From: Acidobacteriota bacterium
Lineage (GTDB): Bacteria; Acidobacteriota; Thermoanaerobaculia; Multivoradales; JBCCEF01
Length of the DNA stretch: 64,000 nucleotides
Assembly (NCBI GenBank): GCA_039030395.1
Contig: JBCCEF010000015.1
Coordinates: 47,018 to 111,017, forward strand
Reading direction: 5' to 3'
The position numbers and the translations under genes are program-made. The first letter of the stretch is position 1; each line of letters opens with the position of its first letter. This document shows positions 6,790 to 31,006 of this stretch, one piece after another. The notes beneath the pieces were generated by a model. The model had not been told where the DNA came from. It did not search any database and worked only from the letters and a program-made list of their open reading frames with translations.

Positions 6790-7293
6790 TCAGGGCGCGG
6801 GCACCGAACCGGCCAGGATCTCTGCCAGACGGCTCGCATCGAGGTTGCCTCCGGAGAGCACCACCGCGACCCGCCTACCGGCAACGCGATCACGGTCCTT
6901 CAGGAGAGCGGCCAAGCTCGCCGCGCCCGCTCCCTCGGAGAGGTTGTGGGTATCGGCGACGTACACGCGGACGGCCTCCGCGATCTCCCTCTCGCTGACC
7001 GTCACGATACGCCCCACACCTTTCCAGATCGCCGCCATGGCCTCCGGATGCGGAACTCGACCGGACATGCCGTCGGCAAAGGTGTCGGCCGTGGGAGTCG
7101 AAATCATCTCGCCCTGTGCGAAGGACATGGCGTAGGCCGGAGCCTGATCCGCCACCACCCCTACAATCTCGGTACTCAGACCGAGCGCGTCCCGCGCCGC
7201 GATCATGCCGCAAATGCCCGAACCCAGACCGACCGGAACGTACACCGCGTCGATTCCCTCCACCGCACGGAAGAGTTCGAGATCCTTCGCCGA
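6790..7293 (-). pseudogene. Truncated threonine/serine dehydratase-like PLP-enzyme gene (C-terminal ~165 aa only)
   Basis: LELFRAVEGIDAVYVPVGLGSGICGMIAARDALGLSTEIVGVVADQAPAYAMSF...VAVVLSGGNLD matches the C-terminal half of fold-type-II PLP dehydratases (IlvA/TdcB/EutB-like). The N-terminal PLP-lysine half is absent. The upstream ORF extension is non-homologous and overlaps the PadR gene and operator on the other strand. Confidence 0.5.
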
Positions 7294-7301
7294 AGGCCTT
7301 G

Positions 7302-7350
7302 TTGTTGACAATCGACAACAAGATTGTCTACAGTTGTTGTCGACGGTCGT
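7302..7350. promoter_or_regulatory. Nested palindromes with a TTGACA-like -35 element upstream of padR; probable PadR operator/promoter
   Basis: TTGTTGACAATCGACAACAA (imperfect palindrome) followed by ACAACAAgattgtctacagTTGTTGT and GTCGAC; TTGACA at 7305-7310 lies ~80 bp upstream of the PadR ATG. Confidence 0.4.
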
Positions 7351-7391
7351 CATCAACCGTGCAAAAGTCTTCCAGGGAAAGGGAAAGAGCG

Positions 7392-7715
7392 ATGGGCAAT
7401 GATCGCCTCCAGGGCACTCTCGACATGTTGATCCTCCGTACCCTCCATCCCCGGCCGATGCACGGCTGGGCGATTGCGCAGCGGTTGCAGGAACTCTCCG
7501 AGGATTACCTGAGGATCGGCCAAGGGTCGCTGTACCCGGCCCTCCACCGACTGGAGTCCGCCGGCTGGCTGGATGCCGAGTGGGGAGTGTCGGAGGCCGG
7601 ACGCAAAGCAAAGTTCTACCGCCTGTCGAAGGCGGGTCGGCTACAGCTTGAGCGCGAGGTGTCGGACTGGGAAGGATTCACCGCCGCCGTCGGGCGAGTA
7701 CTTCAGGAAGCTTAG
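7392..7715 (+). CDS. PadR-family transcriptional regulator
   Basis: LDMLILRTLHPRPMHGWAIAQRLQELSEDYLRIGQGSLYPALHRLESAGWL...KFYRLSKAGRLQLERE is the canonical PadR wHTH. RBS gggaaagag precedes the ATG. Confidence 0.8.
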   Translation: MGNDRLQGTLDMLILRTLHPRPMHGWAIAQRLQELSEDYLRIGQGSLYPALHRLESAGWLDAEWGVSEAGRKAKFYRLSKAGRLQLEREVSDWEGFTAAVGRVLQEA

Positions 7716-7726
7716 GAGGTACCGAT

Positions 7727-10357: not shown

Positions 10358-10650
10358 GGGACGGCTCGATCGGCGATTCTCCTCCACTCAAACTCCGTCC
10401 CGACTCAAAGGCCGCCAGCCCTTGCGAAAGCGGCGTCCCGGCGTCGATCCTCGCCTTTGCGGATCCGGGCCACCCCACCATCGCTCCTAAAGCGAACCCT
10501 CGCCCCGGCTTCGCAGTGGCGCGAACTCGCCCGCTGAGCCGGCAATCCCTACACGGTCAGCTTCGTACCCTCTAAACTAGGCACCACCGGCCCCATCAGC
10601 AAGCCGGTAGACCACGTTGCGACACCCATCGCGAGTTCAGGAGGTGATAC

Positions 10651-11439
10651 ATGCTGCGAACGATTCTGCTGATCGGAATTCTGGTTCTGTTAGCCCAACC
10701 GGCCTTCGGTTTCGACCTCGAAAGCGCCCGCATGGTCGACCTGACCCATACCTTGGACGAGGACACCCTCTACTGGCCCACCTCGCCGAGCCGCTTCGAG
10801 AAACAGGAACTCGCCTACGGGCCGACCGCCGCCGGCTGGTTCTACTCCGCCTTCAAAGTGTGCACGCCGGAGCACGGCGGAACGCACCTCGATGCGCCTC
10901 TCCATTTCGCCGAGAACGGTCTGCCGACAGACCGCATACCGCTGTCGCAGCTCATCGCTCCGGCGGTGGTGATCGACGTCGCTGAGAAAGCGGCGAAGGC
11001 TCCGGAATTCGTCCTCAGCCGAAAGGACGTGCAGGCCTTTGAGAAGGCGCACGGCAAGGTACCGGAGGGAGCCATCGTGCTGCTGCGTACCGGCTGGAGC
11101 CGCCACTGGCCGAAAGCCAAGGCCTACCTCGGCGACGACACACCAGGAGATGCCAGCAAGCTGCGATTCCCCAGCTACGGAGCCGAAGCCGCCCGGCTGT
11201 TGGTGGAGGAGCGCAGGGTCGCCCTGCTCGGAGTGGACACCGCCTCCATCGACGTGGGTAGTTCGAAAGACTTCCCGGTCCACCGCATCGCCGCCGCCCG
11301 CGATGTAGGGGGCCTTGAAAACCTTACCGCCCTCGATCAGCTACCCGCCACCGGCGCCTGGGTTCTCGCCTTGCCCCTCAAGATCGGCGGCGGCTCCGGC
11401 GGTCCGGCGCGAGTGGTGGCGCTGGTCCCGGAGTCGTGA
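10651..11439 (+). CDS. Secreted putative cyclase / kynurenine formamidase-like protein
   Basis: Signal peptide MLRTILLIGILVLLAQPAFG. The motif HxGTHxDAPxH (EHGGTHLDAPLHF) is characteristic of the cyclase family (PF04199). Confidence 0.7.
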   Translation: MLRTILLIGILVLLAQPAFGFDLESARMVDLTHTLDEDTLYWPTSPSRFEKQELAYGPTAAGWFYSAFKVCTPEHGGTHLDAPLHFAENGLPTDRIPLSQLIAPAVVIDVAEKAAKAPEFVLSRKDVQAFEKAHGKVPEGAIVLLRTGWSRHWPKAKAYLGDDTPGDASKLRFPSYGAEAARLLVEERRVALLGVDTASIDVGSSKDFPVHRIAAARDVGGLENLTALDQLPATGAWVLALPLKIGGGSGGPARVVALVPES

Positions 11440-11440
11440 A

Positions 11441-11765
11441 CCACGGCAACCCAATGCCCGTTGATCTTGGGAAGAGGGCCGAGCGATCCGCGATGCGCCG
11501 GTGGTGACCGACCACCTCGAAGAGAAGGGCTCGAAATCCGTTGTCACCGGCAGGCCCCGGCCCTGGTCAAGGAAATCCCGGTCGAGCCCGGGCAATCTTC
11601 CGTCGACCCGGCCACCGTCGACTTCACCACCGAGGACGAACAGGCACGAGCCATGGCCGTGATCCGTGCCGCCGGATCCCTTCTCTGCAGCGGAATGCCC
11701 GAATTCGAGGCCGGCATCGGAGTTGATCAGAAAGGCGATCTGCTGCATGGCGCGCCTCAGACTCC
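11441..11765 (-). pseudogene. DUF1501 gene fragment: partial, internally deleted duplicate of the 3' end of the DUF1501 gene at 13493-14797
   Basis: ~85% nucleotide identity to 13493-13990 with a ~130-bp internal deletion. Encodes ...QQIAFLINSDAGLEF...GSGGTDHGHGSCLFVLGGEVDGGRV...LPVTTDF then loses frame. No N-terminal 3/4 of the protein. Confidence 0.55.
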
Positions 11766-13492: not shown

Positions 13493-14797
13493 CTACCCCC
13501 GCAAAAACAGAGGCAATCCCTTCCCCGACCAGCCTGGAAAGAGAGTCGAGCGATCGGCGATGCGCAGGTGGTGACCGGCCACCTCGGAGAAAACGGCTCG
13601 AAAATCCGTTGTTACCGGCAGGTCCCGACCCTCGTAGAGGGAATCCCGATCGAGTCCCGGGAATGTTCCGTGCACCCGGCCACCGTCGACTTCGCCGCCG
13701 AGGATGAACAGGCACGAGCCATGGCCGTGATCCGTGCCGCCGGATCCATTCTCTGCAACGGTACGCCCAAATTCGGTCATGGTCATCAGAGTGACGTCGT
13801 CCCGGTAGGTTCCCAGATCGGTCCAAAAGGCGTGGATCGACTGCGCGAGATCCCCGGCTCGGCGTGCGAAGGAACCCTGCGCCGTCCCTTGTTGGACGTG
13901 AGTATCCCAACCGCCTGATTCGGCAAAGGCCACTTCGAGGCCGACATCGGACTTGATCAAGAAGGCGATCTGCTGCAAGGCGCGCCCCAGCGGGCTGCGC
14001 GGATATCGCGCCTGGCGGGCCGGCCGGTAGCGCGAGACATCGAGTTTGTCGAGGGTCTCCATCGCCTCAAAGGTGTCTTGGGCAGTGTCCTGGAGGAGAC
14101 GTTGGGAGGTTTCCGCGTAGAGCGACTCGAAGCCTCGACTGGCCACCTCACCAACCCCGGCAGTTTCCGGCAAGTCGACCCGAAAGCGGCGCAAATCCGC
14201 CACCGCCAACGCCGGCTCGTCCCCATAGAGGGAACGCGGCATGGCGTTGGTCAGCGACACGGCGCGGAAAGGGGAAGCCTCATGGCCGAGTTGTCCGACC
14301 ACCCGATTGAGCCAACCGTCGGGCGTTCCTTTGCGGCCCGGCGTACCGGACTCCATGTAGTCCTGGGCATCGAAATGGGAGCGGGTCGCGTCCGGAGAAC
14401 CTACCGCGTGGACGATCGCCAAGCGACGATCCTTCCAGTAGGACTCGAGCGGAGCCAACGCCGGATGGAGACCGAACCCTACCCCGAGATCGAGGGCTCC
14501 CTCCGGCCCAGCGTTCCGTGCCAGCGACATCGCGAGGCGCGGACGTAGCCGGCGCAGATTGGCATCTTCCGCCGGCGGAACCGCCATCAAGCCATCCATG
14601 GCACCGCGCTGGAAGATGGTCACCAACACCTTGCGGCGCCGGAACGCTTGCGCTCCGGCCGCCCCCCAAGCAGCTCGATGCAAGAAACTCGGACCGACGC
14701 CAAGGGAGACCAAAGCCAATCCGCCGGCCTTCAGGAAGGCCCTCCGCTTCAGGCCTTCACGCTCGGACATCACGTTGTCGTCTGGCAGCTTACGCAT
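13493..14797 (-). CDS. DUF1501 domain protein (Tat-secreted sulfatase-fold protein)
   Basis: Twin-arginine signal (RRAFLKAGGLALV). Conserved GGWDTH / GSGGTDHGHG motifs of DUF1501. Paired with DUF1800 upstream. Confidence 0.8.
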   Translation of the reverse strand: MRKLPDDNVMSEREGLKRRAFLKAGGLALVSLGVGPSFLHRAAWGAAGAQAFRRRKVLVTIFQRGAMDGLMAVPPAEDANLRRLRPRLAMSLARNAGPEGALDLGVGFGLHPALAPLESYWKDRRLAIVHAVGSPDATRSHFDAQDYMESGTPGRKGTPDGWLNRVVGQLGHEASPFRAVSLTNAMPRSLYGDEPALAVADLRRFRVDLPETAGVGEVASRGFESLYAETSQRLLQDTAQDTFEAMETLDKLDVSRYRPARQARYPRSPLGRALQQIAFLIKSDVGLEVAFAESGGWDTHVQQGTAQGSFARRAGDLAQSIHAFWTDLGTYRDDVTLMTMTEFGRTVAENGSGGTDHGHGSCLFILGGEVDGGRVHGTFPGLDRDSLYEGRDLPVTTDFRAVFSEVAGHHLRIADRSTLFPGWSGKGLPLFLRG

Positions 14798-19624: not shown

Positions 19625-21313
19625 ATGTGCTCCATCCTCGGCATCCTCGACATTCGCAAAGACCCAGAGTCTCTGCGCAGACTCGCCCTCGAGCTGTCCC
19701 TTCGGCAGCGGCACCGCGGCCCCGATTGGAGCGGCATCTACGCCGACGACCGCGCCGTGCTGGCCCACGAACGGTTGGCGATCGTAGACCCACTCGGCGG
19801 CGCCCAGCCCCTGTTGTCGCCAGACGGGCGCTACGTGCTAGCGGTCAACGGCGAAATCTACAACCACCAGGAATTGCGTCGCGACCTGCCCCACCACGAG
19901 TTCCAAACGGCTTCGGACTGCGAGCCGATTCTGGCTCTGCACGCCGCATCGCCGGCGGATCCAGTGCGCTGGCTGGAGACCCTCAACGGGATCTTCGCTT
20001 TCGTGCTTCACGATCGCGAGTCGGGTCGCTGGCTGGCCGCCAGGGATCCGGTGGGTGTGGTACCGCTTTACACGGGCCAGGATGCGGACGGTCAGCGTTT
20101 CTTTGCGTCGGAGATGAAGGCCCTGACCGGCGTCTGCCACCACATCGAGCAGTTTCCACCGGGCTCCTTTCAGACCCGCGAGATGGCCGCGCCGACCCGG
20201 TACTACGCACCCTCGTGGCGTGAGTTCACTGCGGTCGAAGGCCGGCCCTACGAGGCAGCCTCGCTCCGTTCGGCCCTCGATGCCGCGGTGGAGCGGCAGA
20301 TGATGTGCGACGTTCCCTACGGCGTCCTCCTCTCCGGAGGGCTCGATTCATCGCTCATCGCCGCCTTAGCAGCGCGCCATGCTCGGCACCGGATCGAGAC
20401 GGGTGGACGGGAGGAAGCCTGGTGGCCGCAACTCCACTCCTTCGCCATCGGCCTCGCAGGGTCTCCGGATCTCGAAGCCGCCCAGCTCGCGGCGGATGCG
20501 ATCGAAACGGTCCATCATCCATTCACCTTCACCCTTCAGGAAGGCCTCGATGCGTTGCGCTCGGTCATCTACCACCTGGAGACCTTCGACGTCACGACGG
20601 TGCGTGCCTCGACTCCGATGTTCCTGCTGGCGCGGCGCATCAAGGCCATGGGAATCAAGATGGTCCTGTCGGGAGAGGGGGCCGACGAGATCTTCGGCGG
20701 CTATCTCTACTTCCACAAAGCGCCGGACGCCCGCGCCTTCCACGAAGAGACCGTGCGCAAGCTCGATGCCCTCCACATGTTCGATTGTCTTCGCGCCAAC
20801 AAAGCGATGGCCGCTTGGGGAGTGGAGGCACGGGTGCCCTATCTCGATCGCAAGTTTCTCGATATGGCCATGGCCTTCGACCCGATCGAGAAGATGGTTC
20901 GCACGGGACGGATGGAAAAGCACCTCCTTCGCGCCGCCTTCGATGGGGTCCTGCCAGAATCGATCCTCTGGCGACAAAAAGAGCAGTTTTCCGACGGCGT
21001 GGGCTATGGCTGGATCGACGGGCTGCGGGACCATGCCGCGCGGGTGGTGGACGAGAGAGATCTCGCCGCAGCAGCCGAGCGCTTCAACCATGCACCGCCG
21101 ACCACCGCCGAGGGATACCTGTACCGCTCGACCTTCGAAGAGCTCTTCCCCGGCCCAGCACCGGCCGCAACGGTCCCAGGAGGTAAATCGATCGCCTGCT
21201 CGACGCCGGCGGCATTGGAATGGGACGCCTCCTTCGCCGCTGCCGCCGACCCTTCCGGTCGCGCGGTCGATGGGGTGCACAAGGCGTCCTATGGCGGGCC
21301 GAAGGCGAGCTGA
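19625..21313 (+). CDS. asnB: Asparagine synthetase B (glutamine-hydrolysing)
   Basis: N-terminal MCSILGIL (Cys2 nucleophile), GATase-II domain, SGGLDSS PP-loop and full-length collinearity with AsnB. Confidence 0.9.
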   Translation: MCSILGILDIRKDPESLRRLALELSLRQRHRGPDWSGIYADDRAVLAHERLAIVDPLGGAQPLLSPDGRYVLAVNGEIYNHQELRRDLPHHEFQTASDCEPILALHAASPADPVRWLETLNGIFAFVLHDRESGRWLAARDPVGVVPLYTGQDADGQRFFASEMKALTGVCHHIEQFPPGSFQTREMAAPTRYYAPSWREFTAVEGRPYEAASLRSALDAAVERQMMCDVPYGVLLSGGLDSSLIAALAARHARHRIETGGREEAWWPQLHSFAIGLAGSPDLEAAQLAADAIETVHHPFTFTLQEGLDALRSVIYHLETFDVTTVRASTPMFLLARRIKAMGIKMVLSGEGADEIFGGYLYFHKAPDARAFHEETVRKLDALHMFDCLRANKAMAAWGVEARVPYLDRKFLDMAMAFDPIEKMVRTGRMEKHLLRAAFDGVLPESILWRQKEQFSDGVGYGWIDGLRDHAARVVDERDLAAAAERFNHAPPTTAEGYLYRSTFEELFPGPAPAATVPGGKSIACSTPAALEWDASFAAAADPSGRAVDGVHKASYGGPKAS

Positions 21314-21636
21314 CGCGGGACGCGTCAGTACGCCGGCTGGCTGGTCCTCGGCGACCTTCCCTCACAAGTCACCCTCATTGGCGGCGGACTTCCAGTCCTG
21401 GAGATGAACGTAAGCCAACGGACGGGCAAGAGTGTACCCACTCCCCGAGCCTCCCTCCGCTCTGGGTAGCTCTTCCACCGTCAGGCCGTGCGGAGCCTGC
21501 CGAACATCCCGCCTATCGCTTCCAGACTTCTCGCAAGCCAAACGGAGATCCAGCCCCATCCAACCGGGGCGCGGTTATCCTTGCAAGATTCATCGCTACA
21601 TACCTATATCTTACTGAAACTTGCGGAGGGCGCTCA

Positions 21637-22599
21637 ATGCATCTACAGGAAGCGGTAAACCAATTCCTCGCAGGGTACTTTTCGACTCACGCCCGCAGTC
21701 CGAGGACCATCGCGGCCTACAGCAGCGATCTCGACCAATTCGCAGCTCACGTCGAACCGGTCCGCCCCCTGCACTCCATCGGCCCGGTCGACGCGGAATC
21801 GTGGGCGAGCGATCTCAAGTCCCTGGGACTGGCCCCGGCATCGATTCGCCGCAAACTCGCGGTGCTCAAAGTGTTTTTCAACTACTGGGTCCGGCGAGGC
21901 GAGCTGGAGCGCTCGCCCCTCTGGCTGGTGCGTTTCGACATCGGCAAGGTGAAGCCCTTGACCCGAACTCTGACGGTGCGGGAAATGTCCTCTCTCCTCC
22001 ACCAGGCGCGCGCCAGAGCCGAGCCCATCCCGCAGCGTCTCCTGCCTGAAATCGACAAGCGATTCCTCGCCCTGAGGAACTGGGCCATCGTGGAACTCCT
22101 CTTCGCCACCGGAATCCGCGTCGGCGAGGCCACCAGCATCCTCCTCGGCGACCTGATCCTCGACCAGCGAACCATCCTCATCCGCGGCAAAGGAGGGCGC
22201 CAGCGCCTCGCACTCCTGACCGAGAAAACCAGCTATCGGGCCATCACCGCCTACCACCGACAGCGTGTGGCGCAAAGCGCCAGCACCGAGGCGCTCTTCC
22301 TCAACCGCCGCCGCAATCCGCTCTCCACCCAGGGAGTCGCGGGAATGCTCAGCGCCCTGTGCCGCGAGACCGGCATCACCCGCCGGGTGACACCGCACAT
22401 GCTGCGCCACACCGCCGCGACCTTCCTCCTCCACAACGGCGCCGACCTCCGCATCGTGCAGGAGTTCCTCGGCCACGCCTCCATCACGACCACCCAGCGA
22501 TACACGCATGTCAGCCCGTCACACCTGAAAGCCGCACTACTTCGGTTTCATCCTCGTACCGGACTCTGCGCCTGGAAGAAGTCCGAAGCGAACCCGTAG
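21637..22599 (+). CDS. Tyrosine site-specific recombinase (XerC/XerD-like integrase)
   Basis: C-terminal catalytic signature HMLRHTAATFLLHNGADLRIVQEFLGHASITTTQRYTHV (R..H..R..Y) and N-terminal SAM-like domain. RBS ggaggg. Confidence 0.8.
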   Translation: MHLQEAVNQFLAGYFSTHARSPRTIAAYSSDLDQFAAHVEPVRPLHSIGPVDAESWASDLKSLGLAPASIRRKLAVLKVFFNYWVRRGELERSPLWLVRFDIGKVKPLTRTLTVREMSSLLHQARARAEPIPQRLLPEIDKRFLALRNWAIVELLFATGIRVGEATSILLGDLILDQRTILIRGKGGRQRLALLTEKTSYRAITAYHRQRVAQSASTEALFLNRRRNPLSTQGVAGMLSALCRETGITRRVTPHMLRHTAATFLLHNGADLRIVQEFLGHASITTTQRYTHVSPSHLKAALLRFHPRTGLCAWKKSEANP

Positions 22600-22679
22600 C
22601 TCGCCCCACCCATGGAGAGAAGGTCTCAACCAGATTGCTGTGAAAAACATAACTAGAGATTATCGAGCAACAGCAATCC

Positions 22680-23507
22680 ATGATTCCGGTCCCAAAGCCC
22701 CTAGAGCTGGCCTCTCTCGAATGGTTGCTTGCCCATCACGGTGCCAAGGAACTTGACCGCATTGGAGTTGTCAATGACCTAGGAATTGCACCAGACAGTG
22801 ATGTCCTCGACGTCGCTTGTGGTCCCTGTCTATGGACGAATTTACTAGCCGACAAGATCGGACCTTCAGGACGTCTCTACTCCTTGGACCTAAGCATGGA
22901 GTTGCTCGCCTACGGAAAGGGAAGGCTTCGCGAGAGGCCACCTCGAGCGCCAACGACTGTTGTCAGGGCCAATTTTCAAGAACTGCCGTTTCCATCAGCA
23001 TCGTTCGATTGCATATTCTTTAGCAATGGACTCGCCTACGCCGCCAACCCCTTGAAGGCCCTCTACGAACAGAAGCGAGTCGCCCGACCGGGAGGAAGGG
23101 TCGTAGCGAGGCATTGGAACAACTCAGTGACGATCTTTCACCCAGTGCCCGTAGACTTGCTTTTCGAGGTTCAACTAGGGGTTGCCCGATCACTCGAGTC
23201 TCAGGTCGGCACGCCCCTTCGAAATTTTTTTGGCCAAAGGCTTCACGGCCTCTTTCTTGCTGCTGACTTTCAAAGGATCTCGACCAAGACGAGCGCCGTC
23301 CAGTTCCTGGCACCCTTGAGTTCTGATGCCAGAAACTACCTAACAGAAAAAGCTGAATGGATGGGACGCCGAGCCCGACCCTTGATGTCCAGTGGAAATC
23401 ACTCCCGCTGGCTCTCCTATTTCCAGGAAGGTTCGCCCAACTTCATCCTTGATCGGGATGACTTCTATTTCTGCACCATCGAGATCCAGACAACAGGGAG
23501 AACATAG
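22680..23507 (+). CDS. Class I SAM-dependent methyltransferase
   Basis: Motif I VLDVACGPC and motif-II-like SFDCIFFSNGL in low-GC island DNA. Confidence 0.65.
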   Translation: MIPVPKPLELASLEWLLAHHGAKELDRIGVVNDLGIAPDSDVLDVACGPCLWTNLLADKIGPSGRLYSLDLSMELLAYGKGRLRERPPRAPTTVVRANFQELPFPSASFDCIFFSNGLAYAANPLKALYEQKRVARPGGRVVARHWNNSVTIFHPVPVDLLFEVQLGVARSLESQVGTPLRNFFGQRLHGLFLAADFQRISTKTSAVQFLAPLSSDARNYLTEKAEWMGRRARPLMSSGNHSRWLSYFQEGSPNFILDRDDFYFCTIEIQTTGRT

Positions 23508-23508
23508 A

Positions 23509-24474
23509 GTGAGCAGGAAATTCGATCTGGTTCTAACTCCTGAGGAAAGAAAGGAAATTGAGACGAAAGTAAAGGAGATAACGTCAAGAATAACTCAATG
23601 GAAAAGAGATGACTGGATGGATGAAGTCGCGGTCGCTTCCGGAAGTCTACCCGAGAGGATCCGGAGAGCCTTGCGTCGGTTCAAGCGTGAAGAAACCGCG
23701 CCCTGGATTCGGTTGCGCAACCTTCCCTACGAGCCAGGCCAGATACCGCCGACTCCGGTCGAAATCCCGGCCAAGCCACAATCCAAAGAGGTGAGAGCCG
23801 TCGAAGTGATCCAGTGCCTACTGGCTTGTCTCGTTGGAGAACTATTTGGTTGGAGCAGTCACCAGGGGGGATCTGTCATCACAGACATCCTCCCCCAAAA
23901 GGACAAGCTGTCGGAGGCGTCAGGATCGGGCTCTGGAATCGACTTTAGCTTACATACCGAGGACGCCTTTCACCCCAATGCACCTGAGTACCTCGGGCTC
24001 ATCTGTCTACGCAACCATGGCTTGGTACCCACCGTTGTCTCCACCATACTGGATGTAGAACTTAACGAGCACGAGAAAGATATTCTATTCGAACACCGCT
24101 TCATCGTGGGCGTCAATGTCGCGCACGATGCTCCACAACCGTCTGCCCCGACGAGCATCCTTTTCGGAGACCGAAAGCAGCCCTACTTCAGATTCAATGC
24201 CAACCGACAATCAGCGGTACCAGGTGATCAAGCGGCCGCTGAGGCCTTGAAGAAGCTTGAAGCTAGCCTCTGTAATGCCCAGATTGGGATAGCACTCGAA
24301 TCCGGTGACGCTCTATTCATTGACAACTACCGAGTGGCGCATGGCCGCCCCCGATTCAAACCTAGATTTGATGGGACTGACCGCTGGCTAAAGAGGGTCT
24401 TTCTAACCGGTTCTCTTCGCTCATCAAGGGGGTTGAGAGCCAGTTCCTTGAGCCGAGTCATCCTCGCCAGTTGA
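23509..24474 (+). CDS. Clavaminate-synthase-like (TauD/TfdA superfamily) Fe(II)/2-oxoglutarate-dependent oxygenase
   Basis: H-x-E facial-triad motif (LHTEDAFH) and distal DNYRVAHGR motif as in VioC/AsnO-type amino-acid hydroxylases. The GTG start at 23509 sits 2 nt after the methyltransferase stop (assumed). Confidence 0.5.
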   Translation: MSRKFDLVLTPEERKEIETKVKEITSRITQWKRDDWMDEVAVASGSLPERIRRALRRFKREETAPWIRLRNLPYEPGQIPPTPVEIPAKPQSKEVRAVEVIQCLLACLVGELFGWSSHQGGSVITDILPQKDKLSEASGSGSGIDFSLHTEDAFHPNAPEYLGLICLRNHGLVPTVVSTILDVELNEHEKDILFEHRFIVGVNVAHDAPQPSAPTSILFGDRKQPYFRFNANRQSAVPGDQAAAEALKKLEASLCNAQIGIALESGDALFIDNYRVAHGRPRFKPRFDGTDRWLKRVFLTGSLRSSRGLRASSLSRVILAS

Positions 24475-24475
24475 T

Positions 24476-27400
24476 CTACTCCTCGCTCGTCGCGCCGAGC
24501 GCATAGAGCACAGATTGTTGCCCTCTCGTGAGGCCCTTGCTGCCCTTGAGCCTCAGTCCCTCGTAAGGCCTTGGAGCGATCATCGTCTTAACTAGGTTGC
24601 CGGTCTCTAGTTCGAAAATGTCGAGTTCCCCTGTCGCCGTACTCGCGCACAGCGAATCGCCATTTCCGACTGGGCAGACTGCTTGATAGACGTTCCGTGG
24701 GGATCGAATCACAAGATCCACCTCGCCACTTGTCAGATCCCACGCCTCAAGGGTGCCCGAGGAGGTGCAAAGAAAAAGCTTCTTCCCCAGGGCATCGAAC
24801 ATGACGGCAGTTGGGACTCCGGAAACCGGAGAAATCGTAAGGCTTTCAATGCGCCGAACGACATCCCAGATCGCGAGCCCTGACGAAGTCGCGACCGCAA
24901 AGAGTCTGCTGCTCTTAGCCACTGCGAATGGCGAGAGCTTTCCCCTAACGCCGTCAAAGTCGAGTTCAACTCTGAAAACCTCGGATCGCTCGTCCATAGA
25001 CCAGAAGCGAACGGATGAGTCGTCACCGGAGCTGACCAAGAGGCCTTCCTTCTCGAAAACAGCGACACCATGCACTCTGTCTTCGTGACCATGAAAGGCG
25101 CTAACGAGCTTCCCGGTGTGAGTGCTCCACAGTTTGACAACGGGATCTCTGTTGGAACTCCCGGTGGCCAGCAACTTTCCGCTGGTGCTCAGATCGACCG
25201 ATAGAATCCAGTCGTCGTGTGCCCTTATTCGAGCGACCTCGACGACATCAGTTTCGGTCCAGATCTTCAAGCGCTTGTCGCTACCGCCGCTGACAACAAG
25301 GCCGTGAGTTGCTGAAAGAGCCCAAATGCGTCCACGGTGCGATCCTCGACTCTCTAGGCAGGCCCCAGTATCAATATTCCACTTTCGCACGATCCCATCG
25401 TCACCTCCGCTCAGGATGCAACCGCTCTCTGTTCCAGGCACGATAGACCAAATAGAGTTGGAGTACCCGCGCAGTGAGCCAATCTTGGAACCGTCGTGCA
25501 CATCCCAGATCTTAAGGGCCTGATCTTGGCCGACGGATGCGAGCCTATCTCCATTGGGGAAGAATTTCAGGGCGCGTACCGTTCCGTCGTGCGCATTGCC
25601 AATGGTGTTCACGCAGTCGCCGCTACTCGTGGACCAGATTTTGACGGTTCTGTCTCTACTAGCAGTCGCCAAGAGATCTCGATCAGGGCTAAGAGTCACG
25701 TCCCAGATCCAACTCGAATGCCCCCTAAACTCGCAAACCAATCGGGACGAGCTAAGTTCCCAGAGGCGAGCACAGCAATCAAAACCTGCAGTGGCAAGAG
25801 TGGCGCCCTCCTTATCCAGATCTATGGAAGAGATCCAGTCAGAATGACCCTCAATATGGCGCTCAACCTGCCCGGTTTGAAGGTCGATCACCCGTATCGT
25901 GCCGTCACTGCTTCCTGAAATCACTTTAGACGCTCCGGGGATTACCTGGACCGCCCTGGTCCTACTTCCGAAGGGGCCGAACTCCTTTAAACATGTACCC
26001 GTTCGCCACTCCCAAACTCGAACCGTTCCATCCTCTCCTCCACTGACAACATGTCTTCCGCTCGTATCGAAGACAGCGGAGTTGACCCAGCTCTGATGCC
26101 CAATCAGAGTGGCTTCGCAGAAATAGTCCCTCAGTGCCCAGACTCGGACGGTTTGATCCTCACTGGCGCTGACTAGGAATCGACCATCAGGCGAAAACTC
26201 TACCGACCGGATCCAGCCGACATGGCCTTCGAGCATCGCCAGTGGCTCTTGGTCTTCGACCTTCCAGAGATGGATCACGCCCTTCGTGTCGCCGCAGGCT
26301 AGAGTCTGACCGTCCAATGTCATTGCGACGCAGTGAATGTGTCCAAACTGGCTCCGAAAGCGAACCTGTCTCAGCGTTGAGTAAGCAAGAGAGGTATTCC
26401 GCAGGTCAACCGATTGGAAGTCAACCTGCCGCACCACCAGATGGGACAGATCAAGATTCGACAGGTCGCCAAGAATCTCGATTAAGAGAGAGATCAGATT
26501 CCCGGCCACATAATCCTCTCTCGTTTCTTCTCGGCATTGACCCAACAAGTCTACAAGCAGGCTGGACAATTCATCGCGGAGAAGACCTTGCTCCTCGAAC
26601 CACTCAACAATGGGGCGCAGAATGAGCCGGCGCTGACTTCGTCGAACATAGCTCTTACTAGTCGATTTGATCAAGGCAAACCTTCGGAGCAAGTCGAATG
26701 ATGAGTCGTCGGCAAATTCTCTCTTGACTTCACTGGCCAACTTCCGGCCGATGAAGCGACCTACCCAAGATGGACTGAGCCGAATTTCATCGCCAATCTG
26801 CTGGACAAACCTACGCGTGAGATAGTCGAGTAGAACCGGCTGGAGCCCAATCCGAAGCCGCTTTCTTTCCAGGGGCATGAGTCGTTGAAGGGTATGAACC
26901 GTGCTCGCCAGTTGCTTCCTTGCATCCGATGAGAGAAGATCATCTCGAAGCTCTGGCAGAGCAACCGGCTCACGATCAATCGCAAGCCAATAAAGAACCT
27001 CCAGCTCCATCTTCGAAAGGCGCGATACATGCCAATTCAAGAGTGACTCCAGGTCCAGTATGGTCAACTCTGCTTGGTTGAGAAACTCTCGTATGTCGCC
27101 CCGATAGACAGACTGGATATGACGCGCGGCGAGCTCCAAAGCAAGGGGGTTTCCATCATAGAACTCAATCAACTTCCTCCACTCTTGGTCGCTGGCGGAG
27201 AACTTTCCGATCTCTTCGAAGATTTTCTTTCCGTTATAGACATCCAACCCCCTGAGCAATAGCGTCCGCACCGGTCTGTTATCTCCCTCCAACTTCTCAA
27301 TCTGCCTGGGCTTCTCCCTGCTGGTGAGAATCACGCAGCCCCTATGCTCAAGTTGGCCCAGGGTTAGAATCAGACGAGAGAAGGAGCTGGACGAGGCCCC

Positions 27401-28420
27401 GGTAGTCTCAACGTCACCGGAAGACATGACGGATTCAAAGTTGTCGAGGATCAGCAGTATTTTTTCGGACTTCAAGCAGTCGGCAAGGTCTTCCACAGAG
27501 CTGCGACTCCTTGAAGTCTCGTCGGCTTCCGGACTCCAGTGGTTTACACCGGCCAGGATGCTCTCCACTAATTCCTCTACTGTGGGTGCGCCGACCAAGG
27601 ACCGCCAGATGACCTTGTCGAAACTATACTGGGCGTTTTTCGCGTAGGTTCTTGCAAGACTTGTCTTGCCCAGTCCTCCCCTACCGAATCGGGCCGATAG
27701 CCTTGTTTTGCCTATTCCCCCGAACCCCAGAACCAGCAGGAGTCGTACGTCGTCTTCATGAACCCAACGCTCAAGAATTCTCAGTTCTTGGTCGCGACCG
27801 AATAACTGTCCATTCTCCGGGATACTGGGCCAGTCTTGGTACTGGCCCGTTGTTCGTTGTCGGTGCAGAGTGAATAGGTCGGCGTTCCCCGCTCCTTCAA
27901 GAGCGACAGCGGTTCTTCCTAGTTCAAAAGCAAATCCAATGTCTTTGTTGTTAGCGATCGCATCGTAAAATGCCACCGAGAATGCACTGGCTGTTCGATC
28001 TCGGACAGCGCTGGTCGTCCCGATGACATATTTTATCGATTGAGCTATGGCAGACGCTTGGTCTGCCGAGTAACACGAGTTCAGTAGAACGCACCTGAGA
28101 CCTGGCGAGAAGAGAGAAAAGAGATCAGCGAGCGCGTCACGATCGACGAGTTTCGCAACTCCATCGTCGTCCTCCAACACAAGGCCGTCGTCATTGCCAT
28201 GCGCGGAGATGTGCAAGTACTCGGGTTGATGCTCCAGAAGCGCGCGCCTTAGATCCATCGTTCGAGTAGCCCATCTCTGTTGGAGGCGCAATCGGCTTCT
28301 TGTGCGAGTCAGACTCTCTTGGATTTCTCGAAATTCTACATCCAAACGCAGGCTCTCTGGACCCGTCGGATTCGCTGCGACGTACAGAATGGTAGGTCGT
28401 TCTTCGTACGACGAAGACAT
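24476..28420 (-). CDS. STAND NTPase: N-terminal CHAT (caspase-like His-Cys protease) domain, NB-ARC/NACHT-type ATPase, C-terminal WD40 beta-propeller array (~14 repeats)
   Basis: CHAT dyad motifs LHISAHGNDDG and CVLLNSCYSADQA. P-loop GFGGIGKT followed by a second GRGGLGKT. Walker B LLILDNFE, then GCVILTSRE and GNPLALE (NB-ARC hhhTSR and GxP motifs). Many WD repeats (...HxxxVxSVxFSPDGxxLxSxSxDxTVRVW...). Confidence 0.8.
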   Translation of the reverse strand: MSSSYEERPTILYVAANPTGPESLRLDVEFREIQESLTRTRSRLRLQQRWATRTMDLRRALLEHQPEYLHISAHGNDDGLVLEDDDGVAKLVDRDALADLFSLFSPGLRCVLLNSCYSADQASAIAQSIKYVIGTTSAVRDRTASAFSVAFYDAIANNKDIGFAFELGRTAVALEGAGNADLFTLHRQRTTGQYQDWPSIPENGQLFGRDQELRILERWVHEDDVRLLLVLGFGGIGKTRLSARFGRGGLGKTSLARTYAKNAQYSFDKVIWRSLVGAPTVEELVESILAGVNHWSPEADETSRSRSSVEDLADCLKSEKILLILDNFESVMSSGDVETTGASSSSFSRLILTLGQLEHRGCVILTSREKPRQIEKLEGDNRPVRTLLLRGLDVYNGKKIFEEIGKFSASDQEWRKLIEFYDGNPLALELAARHIQSVYRGDIREFLNQAELTILDLESLLNWHVSRLSKMELEVLYWLAIDREPVALPELRDDLLSSDARKQLASTVHTLQRLMPLERKRLRIGLQPVLLDYLTRRFVQQIGDEIRLSPSWVGRFIGRKLASEVKREFADDSSFDLLRRFALIKSTSKSYVRRSQRRLILRPIVEWFEEQGLLRDELSSLLVDLLGQCREETREDYVAGNLISLLIEILGDLSNLDLSHLVVRQVDFQSVDLRNTSLAYSTLRQVRFRSQFGHIHCVAMTLDGQTLACGDTKGVIHLWKVEDQEPLAMLEGHVGWIRSVEFSPDGRFLVSASEDQTVRVWALRDYFCEATLIGHQSWVNSAVFDTSGRHVVSGGEDGTVRVWEWRTGTCLKEFGPFGSRTRAVQVIPGASKVISGSSDGTIRVIDLQTGQVERHIEGHSDWISSIDLDKEGATLATAGFDCCARLWELSSSRLVCEFRGHSSWIWDVTLSPDRDLLATASRDRTVKIWSTSSGDCVNTIGNAHDGTVRALKFFPNGDRLASVGQDQALKIWDVHDGSKIGSLRGYSNSIWSIVPGTESGCILSGGDDGIVRKWNIDTGACLESRGSHRGRIWALSATHGLVVSGGSDKRLKIWTETDVVEVARIRAHDDWILSVDLSTSGKLLATGSSNRDPVVKLWSTHTGKLVSAFHGHEDRVHGVAVFEKEGLLVSSGDDSSVRFWSMDERSEVFRVELDFDGVRGKLSPFAVAKSSRLFAVATSSGLAIWDVVRRIESLTISPVSGVPTAVMFDALGKKLFLCTSSGTLEAWDLTSGEVDLVIRSPRNVYQAVCPVGNGDSLCASTATGELDIFELETGNLVKTMIAPRPYEGLRLKGSKGLTRGQQSVLYALGATSEE

Positions 28421-29158
28421 ACTGATAATCTCTAGTTATCGGTGTGACGCGTGAGGAGCCCTATGCGCGCCGCACACTTATCGTCTTAATTGAATTGAAG
28501 AATTAGGAGCGCACTAAAGATTATGCAGCCTCGGTGGCCACCTCGTCAAGATACAGATTCTCAAAGCTCAGGACCTTCGCCAGGAATCACCTTCCCCGAT
28601 CGTTGAACACCGCCCTTCCGACGGCCTCAATCCCACTCGAGTGGATTGCCTTATATTGATAAACTACAGATATTCTGTGAAATATATTATATGGATCAAT
28701 CTGCGAGGAGATTGTCTTCCCACTGACTGGTACTCGGCGAACTGCTCGCATACCGCCCTCGCTCCGGCGAGTTCGCGCTCCTGGGGGCAATCGTCCACCT
28801 GAAGGCCGGAGGGGCAGCCGATGCATCCATCCCGGCGTCCCTGCGTCGTGACGCCGACCTGACCGTAACCCCTCCCCCCTGGACTTCTCGCATCCGCCCA
28901 TTCACTTCCGCTTCGACCCACGGCTCTCCCGCTCCGCTGCGCCTATCTATTTGAGTCCGCTGGGTTAGCAGGCTGAGCTGGGTGTTCGGCCGACAAAAAC
29001 TCGACGCCAGGATCCTCTACAGGCGCCTTGCCTCGGCTGACGAGATCTGCTAAGTTGCTGGGAGTAATTACTTTAAGTCTGCCTCGCACCGTTTCCTCGA
29101 AGTCGACGACGGTTTCCGAAGCAGCGGCTTGGCGGACCGCCTGAAAGAGAGGGACCCG

Positions 29159-31006
29159 ATGTCTCTTCGTTCGCCGCGCCTATGGATGGTCGCCGCCCTG
29201 GCCATGCCAGGGATCTTGATCGCCTTCGGCAGTCCGCAGGTGAGCGCCCGCGCCACCCCGCAGGAACCCAGCTCCGAGATTGAGTCCCCAACCGTAGGGG
29301 AGGTCCCGCCGGAATCCGGCGAGGCTGCCTCCTTGAGCGCCGATGAGGAGCACGCGGCGCTGTTCCTGGAGAACCGCTTTCCGGCAGCCACCACCTGCGC
29401 AACGTGCCACCCGGATCACTACCGCGAGTGGTCCGTTTCGCCACATGCCTATGCCCAGATGAGCCCGGTGTTCAACGCCATGCACGGCACCATCCTGAAG
29501 CTCACCAACGGCACCAACGGCGACTTCTGCATCCGCTGCCACACGCCGGTGGGCATGAATTTGGGCGAACCGGAGTTCATCAGCAACCTGGACCGCCACC
29601 CAACCTCCCGCGAGGGAGTGACCTGCGTGGTGTGCCATCGCATCAACCAGCCCTACGGCAAGCTCTCCGGCCGGCTGGCGATCGTCGAGGGCGATCTTTT
29701 CGAACCGGTCTACGGCCCGAGCGGCAACGACGAGCTCCAGCGGGTGATCGAGAGCGACCAGTTCCGGGTCAACACCGAACGGGGGCGCGCCGGGCGGGCG
29801 ATCCACACCCGGTCGGAGAAGTTCTTCCAAATTTCGACTTCCGGCCTATGCGCCACCTGCCACGATGTGAATCTGGTCAACGGATTCCGCCTGGAGGAGG
29901 CGTTCAGCGAATTCAAGACCTCGCCGGCGGCGGAGAACGGCACCTCCTGCCAGGACTGCCACATGAGCACCGTACCGGGAGTCGATTCGGGCTATGCCCA
30001 GGGACCGGCGGCGGTGGTTGGCGGCAAGGCGACGGCGATCCGCAAGCGGACCGATCATATGTTCATCGGCCCGGACTATTCGGTGGTCCACCCGGGGATC
30101 TTCCCGCACAACCCACAGGCTTCGGAGCTGGCGACGTTGCGCGAGTGGCTGACCTTCGATCACGAAGCCGGTTGGGGCACCGATGCCTTCGAAGCGGAAC
30201 TGCCGGAGGCCTACGAGTTCCCGGACCGCTGGCGGGCCGCCGACGACCGCTATGACGCCCGCGACATCTTGAACGACAACCAGGCGCTGTTGGCCGAGGC
30301 CCACGAACAACGTCGCGAGATCTTGCGCGCCGGCTACCAGCTCGGCAAGCTGGTGGTCGACAGGGCCGACGCGAAGGGCCTGGCTTTCCGGGTGGAAGTG
30401 AAGAACGGCACCGACGGCCACGGCGTGCCCACCGGATTCGACGCCGAACGACTGGTGTTCCTGCACACCACCGTGCGCGACGCCGACGGCCGGGTGGTCT
30501 TCGAGTCCGGCGACCTCGACCCCAACGGCGACGTGCGCGACAGTCACTCGCTGTACGTCCACAACGGAGAGCTGCCGCTCGATCGGCAGCTGTTCAGCCT
30601 GCAGTCGAAGTTCATCACCCGCATGGTGCGGGGGGGCGAACGGGAGCAGGTGCTGGCGGTCAACTATTCGCCGGATCCGCTGCCCTTCCTGCGCCCTTCC
30701 ACCTCCTCCACCATTCTCACCGGCCGGCCGCGGGGCGCCCGCAAGCACAAGCAGAACATCGAACCCTTGGGTAGCCGCTGGGCCGAGTACAAGGTGCCGG
30801 CGTCAGCCCTCGACGGTCGCGGTCCATACACCGTCCACGTCGAGATCAAGGCCGGCATGATCCCGGTGAATCTGATCCACGAGATCAAGGACGTGGGCTT
30901 CGACTACGGCTTGAGCGCCCGGGAAGTGGCCGAGCGGGTGGTCGACGGGCATCTCACCCTGTGGGAGCGCGAACACACCATCGAACTCGACCGACCGGGC
31001 GGCTGA
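29159..31006 (+). CDS. Secreted multiheme c-type cytochrome (5 CxxCH)
   Basis: Signal peptide MSLRSPRLWMVAALAMPGILIAFG. Heme motifs CATCH, CIRCH, CVVCH, CATCH, CQDCH. RBS agagaggga. Confidence 0.8.
   Translation: MSLRSPRLWMVAALAMPGILIAFGSPQVSARATPQEPSSEIESPTVGEVPPESGEAASLSADEEHAALFLENRFPAATTCATCHPDHYREWSVSPHAYAQMSPVFNAMHGTILKLTNGTNGDFCIRCHTPVGMNLGEPEFISNLDRHPTSREGVTCVVCHRINQPYGKLSGRLAIVEGDLFEPVYGPSGNDELQRVIESDQFRVNTERGRAGRAIHTRSEKFFQISTSGLCATCHDVNLVNGFRLEEAFSEFKTSPAAENGTSCQDCHMSTVPGVDSGYAQGPAAVVGGKATAIRKRTDHMFIGPDYSVVHPGIFPHNPQASELATLREWLTFDHEAGWGTDAFEAELPEAYEFPDRWRAADDRYDARDILNDNQALLAEAHEQRREILRAGYQLGKLVVDRADAKGLAFRVEVKNGTDGHGVPTGFDAERLVFLHTTVRDADGRVVFESGDLDPNGDVRDSHSLYVHNGELPLDRQLFSLQSKFITRMVRGGEREQVLAVNYSPDPLPFLRPSTSSTILTGRPRGARKHKQNIEPLGSRWAEYKVPASALDGRGPYTVHVEIKAGMIPVNLIHEIKDVGFDYGLSAREVAERVVDGHLTLWEREHTIELDRPGG

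Follow-up and report, generated by a model that had tools for sequence, protein, structure and literature searches.

The locus described here raises the question of what kind of element places a block of low-GC (guanine plus cytosine) genes directly behind a tyrosine recombinase gene in a GC-rich acidobacterial genome. The stretch of DNA analyzed (hereafter the window) comprises 64,000 nt of the 121.6-kb contig JBCCEF010000015.1 (positions 47,018 to 111,017, forward strand) in assembly GCA_039030395.1, which represents an Acidobacteriota bacterium. The recombinase gene occupies 21637-22599, and behind it lie three genes, encoding an S-adenosylmethionine (SAM) methyltransferase, an Fe(II)/2-oxoglutarate oxygenase, and an NLR-like STAND protein, which we call the cargo. 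An initial annotation of this DNA had taken the segment for an island carried in by its integrase. Our analysis indicates that the region is probably a site-specific inversion module, in which an Xer-like enzyme acts on two inverted dif-like sites. The deviant composition of the segment and its tie to the adjacent tyrosine recombinase are retained in this reading, whereas the idea of an island integrase that uses att direct repeats at a transfer RNA (tRNA) gene is not.

The compositional boundary is sharp. In 500-nt windows, the GC content runs at 0.60 to 0.68 up to 22.5 kb, at 0.49 to 0.56 between 22.5 and 28.75 kb, and at 0.64 to 0.68 from 28.75 kb onward; in 2-kb windows over all 64 kb, values of 0.53 to 0.55 occur solely within 23 to 29 kb, two transitional windows give 0.57 and 0.60, and the remainder lie between 0.615 and 0.709. 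The trough at 22.5 to 28.75 kb is the sole such discontinuity in the window. These sliding windows confirm a real drop at 22.6 to 28.7 kb whose edges change within 500 nt, but the step is from about 65% to about 54%, and not from 68% to 50% as first described. The low-GC segment does begin right behind the recombinase gene, domain searches uphold the identity of the three cargo genes, and the missing tRNA target noted by the initial annotation extends to the entire window, where there is no tRNA gene. Between the inverted repeats introduced below, GC content is 0.541, compared with 0.644 and 0.642 in the 3-kb flanks and 0.646 in the recombinase gene itself.

The cargo is framed by a perfect 16-nt inverted repeat (ATAACTAGAGATTATC) at 22649-22664 and 28424-28439, which encloses exactly the three genes; we estimate that a perfect 16-mer inverted repeat would be expected by chance about 0.01 times in 10 kb. 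The left copy starts 50 nt past the recombinase stop codon, at 22649. Each copy forms part of a 17-bp core of the form GATAAC-N5-ATTATC. The left dif-like site (CATAACTAGAGATTATC; 22648-22664, plus strand) follows the recombinase stop at 48 nt and precedes the methyltransferase ATG by 15 nt, and the right site (GATAACTAGAGATTATC; 28424-28440, minus strand) precedes the STAND ATG by 3 nt, such that the sites lie in the 5′ leaders of both transcription units. When the window was searched for the core motif with up to 2 mismatches, 5 matches were found against an expectation of 0.79, a number that none of 100 shuffled sequences reached. The stretches 22648-22664 and 28424-28440 are likely to be the recombination sites of the neighboring enzyme. 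Their inverted geometry would lead to inversion, or to cassette exchange between molecules, and not to excision.

The recombinase (320 aa, plus strand) matches Pfam Phage_integrase (1.3e-42) together with SAM_1. Its NCBIfam scores are 225.8 bits for XerC (cutoff 335.15) and 225.6 bits for XerD (cutoff 329.6), both short of the equivalog cutoffs, and the integron integrase models give 83.7 bits (TIGR02249, cutoff 265) and 60.1 bits (NF011946, cutoff 435). Because it scores below all of these cutoffs, we class the protein as Xer-like, yet as neither XerC, XerD, nor IntI. The catalytic residues assigned by alignment (R161, K185, H254, R257, H280, and Y289) are unchanged across 12 members of the clade, and the nearest solved structures are XerA, XerD, and XerH. 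When relatives with an empty site were sought, the scan of species-representative genomes returned no Xer relative above 51% identity; in a protein search the nearest relative was 74% identical, and the nearest relative of AsnB, the product of the gene upstream of the recombinase, was 72% identical, with no synteny between the window and the contig of that closest AsnB. Among the loci that we scanned, the closest recombinase (L084, 72%) is encoded about 320 nt downstream of a tRNA-Phe gene (L084 234-309). Since L084 has tRNA-Phe upstream where the window has asnB, the recombinase and its sites appear to form a platform that has no fixed chromosomal position.

Loci for comparison came from a recombinase scan of species-representative genomes and from a clade-alignment scan of JGI metagenomes, which together gave 160 loci (designated by L numbers). 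An inverted core pair lies beside the recombinase gene in 51 other loci, where it encloses 1.0 to 6.5 kb. Among homologs with at least 43% identity, an adjacent site was present in 64 of 91 and a complete pair in 40 of 91, most of the others being short contigs. The hosts belong to the Acidobacteriota, Chloroflexota, Actinomycetota (Solirubrobacterales), and Proteobacteria, and they include Burkholderiales, Alteromonas, Colwellia, Hyphomicrobium, and Reyranella. The layout is shared throughout: an Xer homolog, two inverted sites, and two convergent arms of genes whose start codons lie at or inside the site. By comparison, 80 integrase loci from viral contigs contained no site pair. It is very likely, in our view, that the Xer gene and inverted-site cassette of the window belong to a conserved class. 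Phages were considered as vehicles for the class and set aside; a single one of the 80 viral-contig matches fell in the clade, and that one lacked the site.

A complete example is found in a cultured type strain, on plasmid pMRAD01 of Methylobacterium radiotolerans JCM 2831 (NC_010510.1, positions 401104-405580, which are 7001-11480 of locus L164), where the genes are annotated as "tyrosine-type recombinase/integrase," "D-alanine--D-alanine ligase," and "ATP-binding protein." Here, the 17-bp site (GATAATCGGGGATTATG) contains both the stop codon of the recombinase gene and the first codon of the D-Ala-D-Ala ligase gene, the stop TAA being the TAA of GATAAT and the cargo ATG being the end of ATTATG. 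The opposing ATP-binding protein (816 aa) starts at the mirrored site, and a TIR-domain gene lies 2.4 kb beyond. When orientation variants were sought among annotated plasmids, no near-identical relative of pMRAD01 was found. Homologs on Rhizobium T1470/T1473 and Bradyrhizobium plasmids were also inspected, but these are broken by insertion sequences and the architecture is absent. As a separate observation, a Hyphomicrobium locus (L054; 10828-10940, 12620-12732, and 12767-12855) looks like a shufflon-like multisite variant, with three sites and with a 113-nt inverted repeat through which the 3′ end of the recombinase gene is present in a second copy.

Close proximity of site and start codon, as seen on pMRAD01, is usual among the loci. 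Over 106 arms, the consensus in the inward reading is nTAys-GATAAC-TAGGA-ATTAT(C/G), in which the ATAA and TTAT positions are invariant and the inner arm is conserved no further than TTATS. Purines dominate the 5-nt center when it is read inward (mean, 3.8 of 5), and its first three bases are mostly TAG, TAA, or TGA. The inward gene has its start codon a median of 1 nt past the core, and within 10 nt in 81 of 104 arms; in 29 arms, the ATG supplies the final three bases of the site. In loci where the recombinase gene precedes the segment, its stop codon is located 14 to 56 nt ahead of the site or within it. The sequence would therefore serve as putative crossover core and stop/start junction at once, and because it does so at the starts of the arms, transcription of the cargo would have to come from outside.

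Such an overlap with translation signals might instead mean that the two units simply share the inverted repeats as regulatory or translation-initiation elements (an operator or a 5′ untranslated region) next to an ordinary XerC or XerD gene, with no rearrangement taking place. The sites do overlap a stop codon, a purine-rich stretch, and start signals directly upstream of both starts, and the best family matches of the recombinase are indeed XerC and XerD. We nevertheless find this explanation highly improbable. The recombinase falls some 100 bits short of both equivalog cutoffs, with equal scores for the two families; the site tracks the clade over four phyla, whether the cargo lies upstream or downstream of the recombinase; and a given cargo pair may point either way or be swapped for another in a sister locus. 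Furthermore, contig ends are enriched about 12-fold at the sites, and ATAA...TTAT arms, as found in Xer sites, are present in the core (PMC13141974, Table 1).

Three comparisons between loci place the same cargo in opposite orientations. The pair formed by a CDP (cytidine diphosphate)-alcohol phosphatidyltransferase and a protein with seven transmembrane (TM) segments (families F1 and F2) has one orientation relative to the Xer gene in L006, L107, and L113 and the opposite one in L007 and L147. The STAND-plus-glycosyltransferase type runs one way in L008, L013, L056a, and L102 and is reversed in L090, L120, and L122, and genes that are 88% identical occupy opposite ends in L114 and L117.

Within single samples, the breaks in assembly graphs are informative. 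We used Logan assemblies (k = 31), which are independent of the assembly described above, of the sequencing run containing this genome, SRR22824298. The Logan contig that bears asnB and xer stops at 22664, the inner end of the left repeat, while the cassette contig corresponds to window positions 22635-28439 and stops at the outer end of the right repeat. A 16-nt repeat alone cannot break a k = 31 graph. Both breakpoints are predicted by one extra junction, consisting of the left flank, the repeat, and the reversed STAND end, whereas presence or absence of the cassette alone, or a second genomic context alone, each predicts just one of them. In a second sample, the Logan contig L170 stops exactly 30 nt past the outer edge of the 24-nt repeat of L169, which would be the other type of branch that an inverted junction creates. 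The contig bearing protein P0015 stops 6 nt past the core in 4 of 5 samples, and of 216 contig ends in all, 12 fall no more than 60 nt from a site, where about 1 would be expected. Taken with the opposite orientations above, these breaks make it likely, in our judgment, that the segment inverts in the population.

Several observations weigh against this account, or against parts of it that are developed below. The metagenome-assembled genome and the Logan contigs show a single orientation of the window cassette, and the graph breaks imply one of the two inverted junctions. At the P0050 locus, three long scaffolds all have the same orientation. The Logan contigs L175 and L178 of the same locus end at the first base of the site, on its outer edge (equivalent to L171 9102), which simple inversion does not explain; these ends may reflect some other rearrangement, or a site variant, in those samples. 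The outward-extended repeats at the contig starts of L090, L102, and L122 could be genuine long inverted repeats. In the left site of the window, position 1 is C rather than G, and 15 nt separate the site from the methyltransferase ATG, more than the median. As for the consequences of inversion, the promoter calls are weak consensus matches, and the inward-facing ones occur on both flanks; as for the nature of the cargo, PADLOC recognizes no known defense system. At one stage, the outward-extended repeats of L090, L102, and L122 were taken as direct proof of alternative junctions, a status that we downgraded given the internal, genuine long inverted repeat of L054.

The imprint of a classical island was also sought. 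A search for short direct repeats around the segment, as the initial annotation had proposed, yielded one imperfect candidate pair. The left member (CTGGCTGGTCCTCGGCGACCTTCCCTCA; 21337-21364) begins 24 nt past the asnB stop codon, and the right member (CTGACTGGTACTCGGCGAACTGCTCGCA; 28723-28750) begins where GC content returns to the host level. When the asnB-recombinase spacer was compared with the distal flank, this pair was the best-matching 28-mer (22 of 28 positions), and 0 of 200 shuffles reached 22. In L004, a direct repeat matching at 24 of 28 positions (9589-9616 and 14517-14544; shuffle maximum, 20) surrounds the recombinase gene and cassette, and the low-GC zone of that locus likewise spans recombinase to cassette. 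No outer direct repeat was found in 38 other loci.

One could thus propose that an integrase inserted a 7.4-kb unit between asnB and a cytochrome gene at att sites, and that the inverted repeats are incidental. The candidate repeat brackets exactly this unit, with its right copy at the return to host GC content; L004 offers an analogue; and the closest Xer gene, that of L084, lies beside tRNA-Phe in a different neighborhood. Against this, the direct repeat was found post hoc and is imperfect, the 38 other loci have none, and the feature conserved with the clade is the inverted pair inside the unit. Moreover, the recombinase gene is at host GC content where the cargo is not, and the window has no tRNA. 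We consider this proposal rather unlikely as an account of the locus, although it does not exclude an inversion module and could describe how the platform arrived; the whole unit (recombinase, cassette, and AT-rich flank) may once have integrated as an element. Still less credible is a nonautonomous transposon, similar to a miniature inverted-repeat transposable element, with 16-bp terminal inverted repeats and passenger genes. Perfect terminal inverted repeats do enclose low-GC cargo, but no transposase is present in or near the segment, the bases flanking the repeats (aaaaaC/Gcggtg) show no target-site duplication, the low GC content runs on for 283 nt beyond the right repeat, and a tyrosine recombinase accompanies the repeats in every related locus. 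With transposase and target duplication both lacking, we reject this explanation as extremely improbable.

If the segment is an inversion module, its foreign composition calls for a further process, and comparison of sister loci suggests one. In L087 and L088, the flanks and Xer genes are 86 to 91% identical and the cargo is unrelated. L088 keeps both sites (10916-10932), while the recombinase-proximal site of L087 (at about 10897) is reduced to a half-site remnant (GGGGATTATC), which probably makes L087 a locked derivative. L084, with the recombinase closest to that of the window, instead carries an ATP-grasp enzyme and a 781-aa TPR STAND protein, and the methyltransferase family of the window (F10) has a different partner in L055 and L152. 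Cargo GC content is below that of the flanks in 40 of 52 loci, the window included (mean difference, -4.6 points; Wilcoxon P = 4e-6), with deficits of up to -18 points in high-GC hosts, and the 10-point deficit of the window is typical of the class. That the cargo segment is compositionally foreign and functionally tied to the neighboring tyrosine recombinase is supported, because the association recurs in 51 other loci and the deficit in 40 of 52. The same figures bear on whether the GC dip is simply intrinsic to the genes, for instance to a repeat-rich WD40 protein, with no island entity behind it. The STAND gene does make up 68% of the segment. However, the methyltransferase and oxygenase genes (0.51 to 0.55) and the noncoding distal flank (0.49) are equally low, the edges are sharp (less than 500 nt), and the same deficit accompanies unrelated cargo elsewhere; we find such an origin very improbable. 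Exchange of cassettes between molecules would explain the foreign GC content, and it is a tentative proposal of ours, with the balance tilted slightly against it, that the sites mediate such exchange as well as inversion.

What inversion would do to expression depends on where transcription begins. There is no space for internal promoters or terminators, because the starts abut the sites and the convergent stops of the oxygenase (24474) and STAND (24476) genes are 1 nt apart. Upstream of the recombinase gene, the element TTGCAA-17-CTATAT pointed out by the initial annotation (21581-21609, plus strand) is present in the sequence, but it is weak and does not survive a consensus promoter scan. 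Terminator prediction found none between xer and the left site. The sole consensus promoter in the scanned 8.5 kb (21000-29500) is TTGACG-18-CATAAT at 28549-28520, facing inward from the right; it is a sigma-70-like match within the AT-rich distal flank (28441-28722, minus strand; GC content, about 0.49), the stretch over which low GC content continues for 283 nt past the right inverted repeat. In the related loci, inward promoter-like matches outnumber outward ones both in the distal flanks (12 of 46 versus 3 of 46) and in the recombinase-proximal flanks (9 of 32 versus 3 of 32), and the sequence TTGTC-N17-GATAAT is conserved 40 to 50 nt from the proximal site in several acidobacterial loci.

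From these elements, the following mechanism can be proposed. The recombinase would act on the two inverted 17-bp sites, with strand exchange in the central CTAGAGA flipping a segment of 5,759 bp. Within this segment, two convergent promoterless units would face each other, the methyltransferase and oxygenase on one side and the CHAT-NB-ARC-WD40 protein on the other. Transcription from the left would be read-through from the recombinase gene, and that from the right would start at the promoter of the AT-rich flank, such that each flip swaps which arm joins which external promoter. The stronger promoter would probably silence the other arm; we expect such interference between convergent arms that no terminator separates. 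The site pair would, in addition, let another site-bearing molecule replace the cassette. Whether inversion toggles expression in this way seems to us an even proposition. Alternatively, both flanks may fire, in which case flipping would re-pair the arms with promoters instead of turning them on and off.

The cargo follows a theme of recurrent pairs. Over all loci, the enzyme arms encode CDP-alcohol phosphatidyltransferases, UbiA, flavin adenine dinucleotide (FAD) oxidoreductases, and Ddl-like ATP-grasp enzymes with or without YbaK, as well as GT2/GT4/carbamoyltransferase and methyltransferase proteins, an aminotransferase with or without PhyH, and KAS III. The partner arms encode NLR-like STAND proteins (AAA_16 plus TPR; in the window, CHAT-NB-ARC-WD40), a pentapeptide plus CHAT-like protein, a TIR-like plus HEAT protein, or a protein with 6 or 7 TM segments and no Pfam match. 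Genes for TIR, CHAT, EAD1, and nSTAND proteins, along with restriction-type genes, abound near the related loci. When the cargo of the window was run through PADLOC 2.0, no system was called, and the only matches were to chat (1.6e-6), a HEAT-ARM model (driven by the WD40 repeats), and mad2 (for the methyltransferase domain); ten cargo proteins from related loci gave only TIR (1.4e-5) and weak IetA and mad8 P-loop matches.

The TM proteins deserve separate mention. Partner-arm proteins of families F0, F2, F22, F28, and F31 have 314 to 384 aa and 4 to 7 predicted TM segments, mostly 6 or 7 (examples are L012 8705-9652, L006 6730-7752, and L114 1241-2269). Scanned members of F0, F2, and F22 had no Pfam match, and the F0 and F2 proteins that were tested had no PADLOC match. 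Each TM family is steadily paired with one enzyme family, be it UbiA, CDP-alcohol phosphatidyltransferase, FAD oxidoreductase, or KAS III.

One of the closest known systems is the Xer1/vpma locus of Mycoplasma agalactiae (with the related vsa/HvsR and vsp loci), in which the DNA between short sites in 5′ regions is inverted by an Xer-family recombinase encoded at the locus, and a different gene is thereby joined to a fixed external promoter. The module described here would likewise be a promoter-capture type of inversion with a locus-encoded Xer-family recombinase. However, vpma switches paralogous surface lipoprotein genes at one promoter, whereas here the arms are unrelated (enzymes versus a STAND or membrane protein), the site sequence is different, promoters are possibly present on both flanks, the cargo appears to be replaced horizontally, and the bacteria concerned live freely in soil and water. 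An invertible segment with opposed coding units, a fixed outside promoter, and an adjacent recombinase gene is likewise known from the G segment of phage Mu (Gin) and from the R64 shufflon (Rci). Those systems swap C-terminal parts of one protein at sites within the coding sequence (and Gin is a serine recombinase), whereas here whole genes or operons would be swapped at a site in the translation-initiation region. With integrons (IntI, attI/attC, Pc), the module shares a platform recombinase related to Xer, promoterless cassettes expressed from outside, deviant composition, and high turnover. It differs in that the recombinase is not IntI, there are no attC hairpin sites, and each platform has one cassette; moreover, integron cassettes are excised as circles, while the cassettes here are two-ended, with inverted double-stranded sites that would lead to inversion.

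The dif modules of Acinetobacter provide a direct precedent for what we propose, in that inversion and single-module replacement at inversely oriented Xer sites have been demonstrated there, both by experiment and by sequence comparison (PMC13141974; see also PMC6449649 and PMC9947245). As in that system, discrete modules lie between inversely oriented Xer-type sites whose half-sites end in ATAA and begin with TTAT, the pdif sites reading ...CGTATAA-6 nt-TTATGTT... (PMC13141974). The differences are nonetheless considerable. A pdif site is 28 bp long and has an 11-6-11 structure with distinct XerC and XerD arms and is served by the chromosomal XerC/D of the host, whereas each module here has its own Xer-like gene and a near-palindromic core with a 5-nt (N5) center or, counted between ATAA and TTAT, a purine-rich stretch of 7 nt. 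In a single genus, dif modules are strung together as alternating C/D arrays on Rep_3/OrfX plasmids, whereas these are single chromosomal or plasmid modules in at least four phyla. Finally, dif modules carry their own expression signals and mostly resistance or toxin-antitoxin genes, in contrast to two convergent promoterless arms, and their sites do not overlap stop and start codons as the present ones do. With a dedicated recombinase, a core overlapping translation signals, and a two-armed cassette found across phyla, the design differs in defining respects from dif modules, vpma-type switches, and integrons alike.

In its domain makeup (CHAT effector, P-loop NB-ARC, and WD40 sensor), the cargo STAND protein resembles the NLR-like STANDs, such as Avs, bNACHT, and those of the "conflict systems" of Kaur et al. 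2020 (PMC7159879), but, apart from the CHAT domain, no curated defense family gave a significant match to it. The passages of three papers from the Aravind group (PMC7159879, PMC8195603, and PMC12419801) that were reached by term search make no mention of a linked recombinase or of inversion. The screen of Milman et al. 2023 demanded at least one repeat within a coding sequence and, because of this, would not have captured the present design. Nor did full-text literature searches and term searches bring up, in the portions of text that they returned, a description of this combination of recombinase, site, and cargo. The design is apparently both widespread and undescribed.

A broader, and admittedly speculative, possibility is that these loci represent an unrecognized cross-phylum platform, in which a dedicated Xer enzyme and a nearly universal site (crossover, stop, purine-rich leader, and start in one) flip and exchange two-armed conflict or immunity cassettes. 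Such a platform would be a chromosomal, inversion-type counterpart of integrons and dif modules, and its flipping might be a form of bet-hedging, with a small-molecule enzyme arm as one state and an NLR-like, membrane, or CHAT "death" arm as the other. We hold this synthesis to be somewhat less than evenly favored. Were it true, many genes annotated as "tyrosine-type recombinase/integrase" near genes of odd GC content in soil, freshwater, and marine bacteria would be enzymes of phase variation and cassette exchange and not markers of prophages or islands. NLR-like STANDs, CHAT proteases, and multipass membrane proteins would then be under stochastic, heritable on/off or rewiring control, which would bear on how bacteria tolerate costly or suicidal immune genes. 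The 17-bp crossover/stop/start site with its one small recombinase would likewise be a natural, portable analogue of engineered tools for flipping and cassette exchange. The cassettes, in which an enzyme arm steadily meets a STAND or membrane arm, make up a set of two-component systems, and cultured hosts in which these could be studied include Methylobacterium radiotolerans JCM 2831, Pelomonas aquatica KCTC 42961, and Alteromonas sp. a30. It is the breadth of distribution, the dual-purpose site, and the cargo theme that we expect to surprise a specialist.

As to the individual cargo proteins of the window, the first gene of the enzyme arm (22680-23507, plus strand) encodes a UbiE-like class I SAM methyltransferase of 275 aa (Methyltransf_11, 1.1e-17). 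The oxygenase gene (23509-24474, plus strand; 321 aa) has a GTG start 1 nt past the methyltransferase stop, and the corresponding gene call in L002 is at 875-1840. Its product is a TauD protein of the VioC/NapI/GntD type. In NCBIfam it scores 275.7 bits for GntD (cutoff 345) and 214.9 bits for VioC (cutoff 418.6); its matches in the PDB are 6DAW (3.6e-58) and VioC entries (about 5e-44), and the HTED motif and distal His align to 6DAW. By these matches, the protein is assigned to the fold and predicted chemistry class of the NapI/VioC oxygenases of free basic amino acids.

The opposing arm consists of the STAND gene (24476-28420, minus strand), whose product of 1,314 aa contains CHAT (1.6e-6), NB-ARC (7.6e-11), pentapeptide, and about 14 WD40 repeats (7.5e-74) by Pfam. 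The N-terminal CHAT domain has the caspase-like His and Cys residues. Another cargo STAND protein, that of L171 (9156-13379; 1,407 aa), opens with EAD1, and in that locus an EAD1-TIR gene (7064-7813) lies just outside the invertible segment, which suggests that the flipped arm may recruit an effector encoded outside the cassette. Curiously, the NB-ARC domain of the window protein (27644-27727, minus strand; residues 232 to 259, approximately) has Walker A motifs in tandem, GFGGIGKTRLSARF and GRGGLGKTSLARTY. The two copies are encoded by 42-nt stretches with about 60% identity, a sign that the P-loop may have been duplicated in frame long ago.

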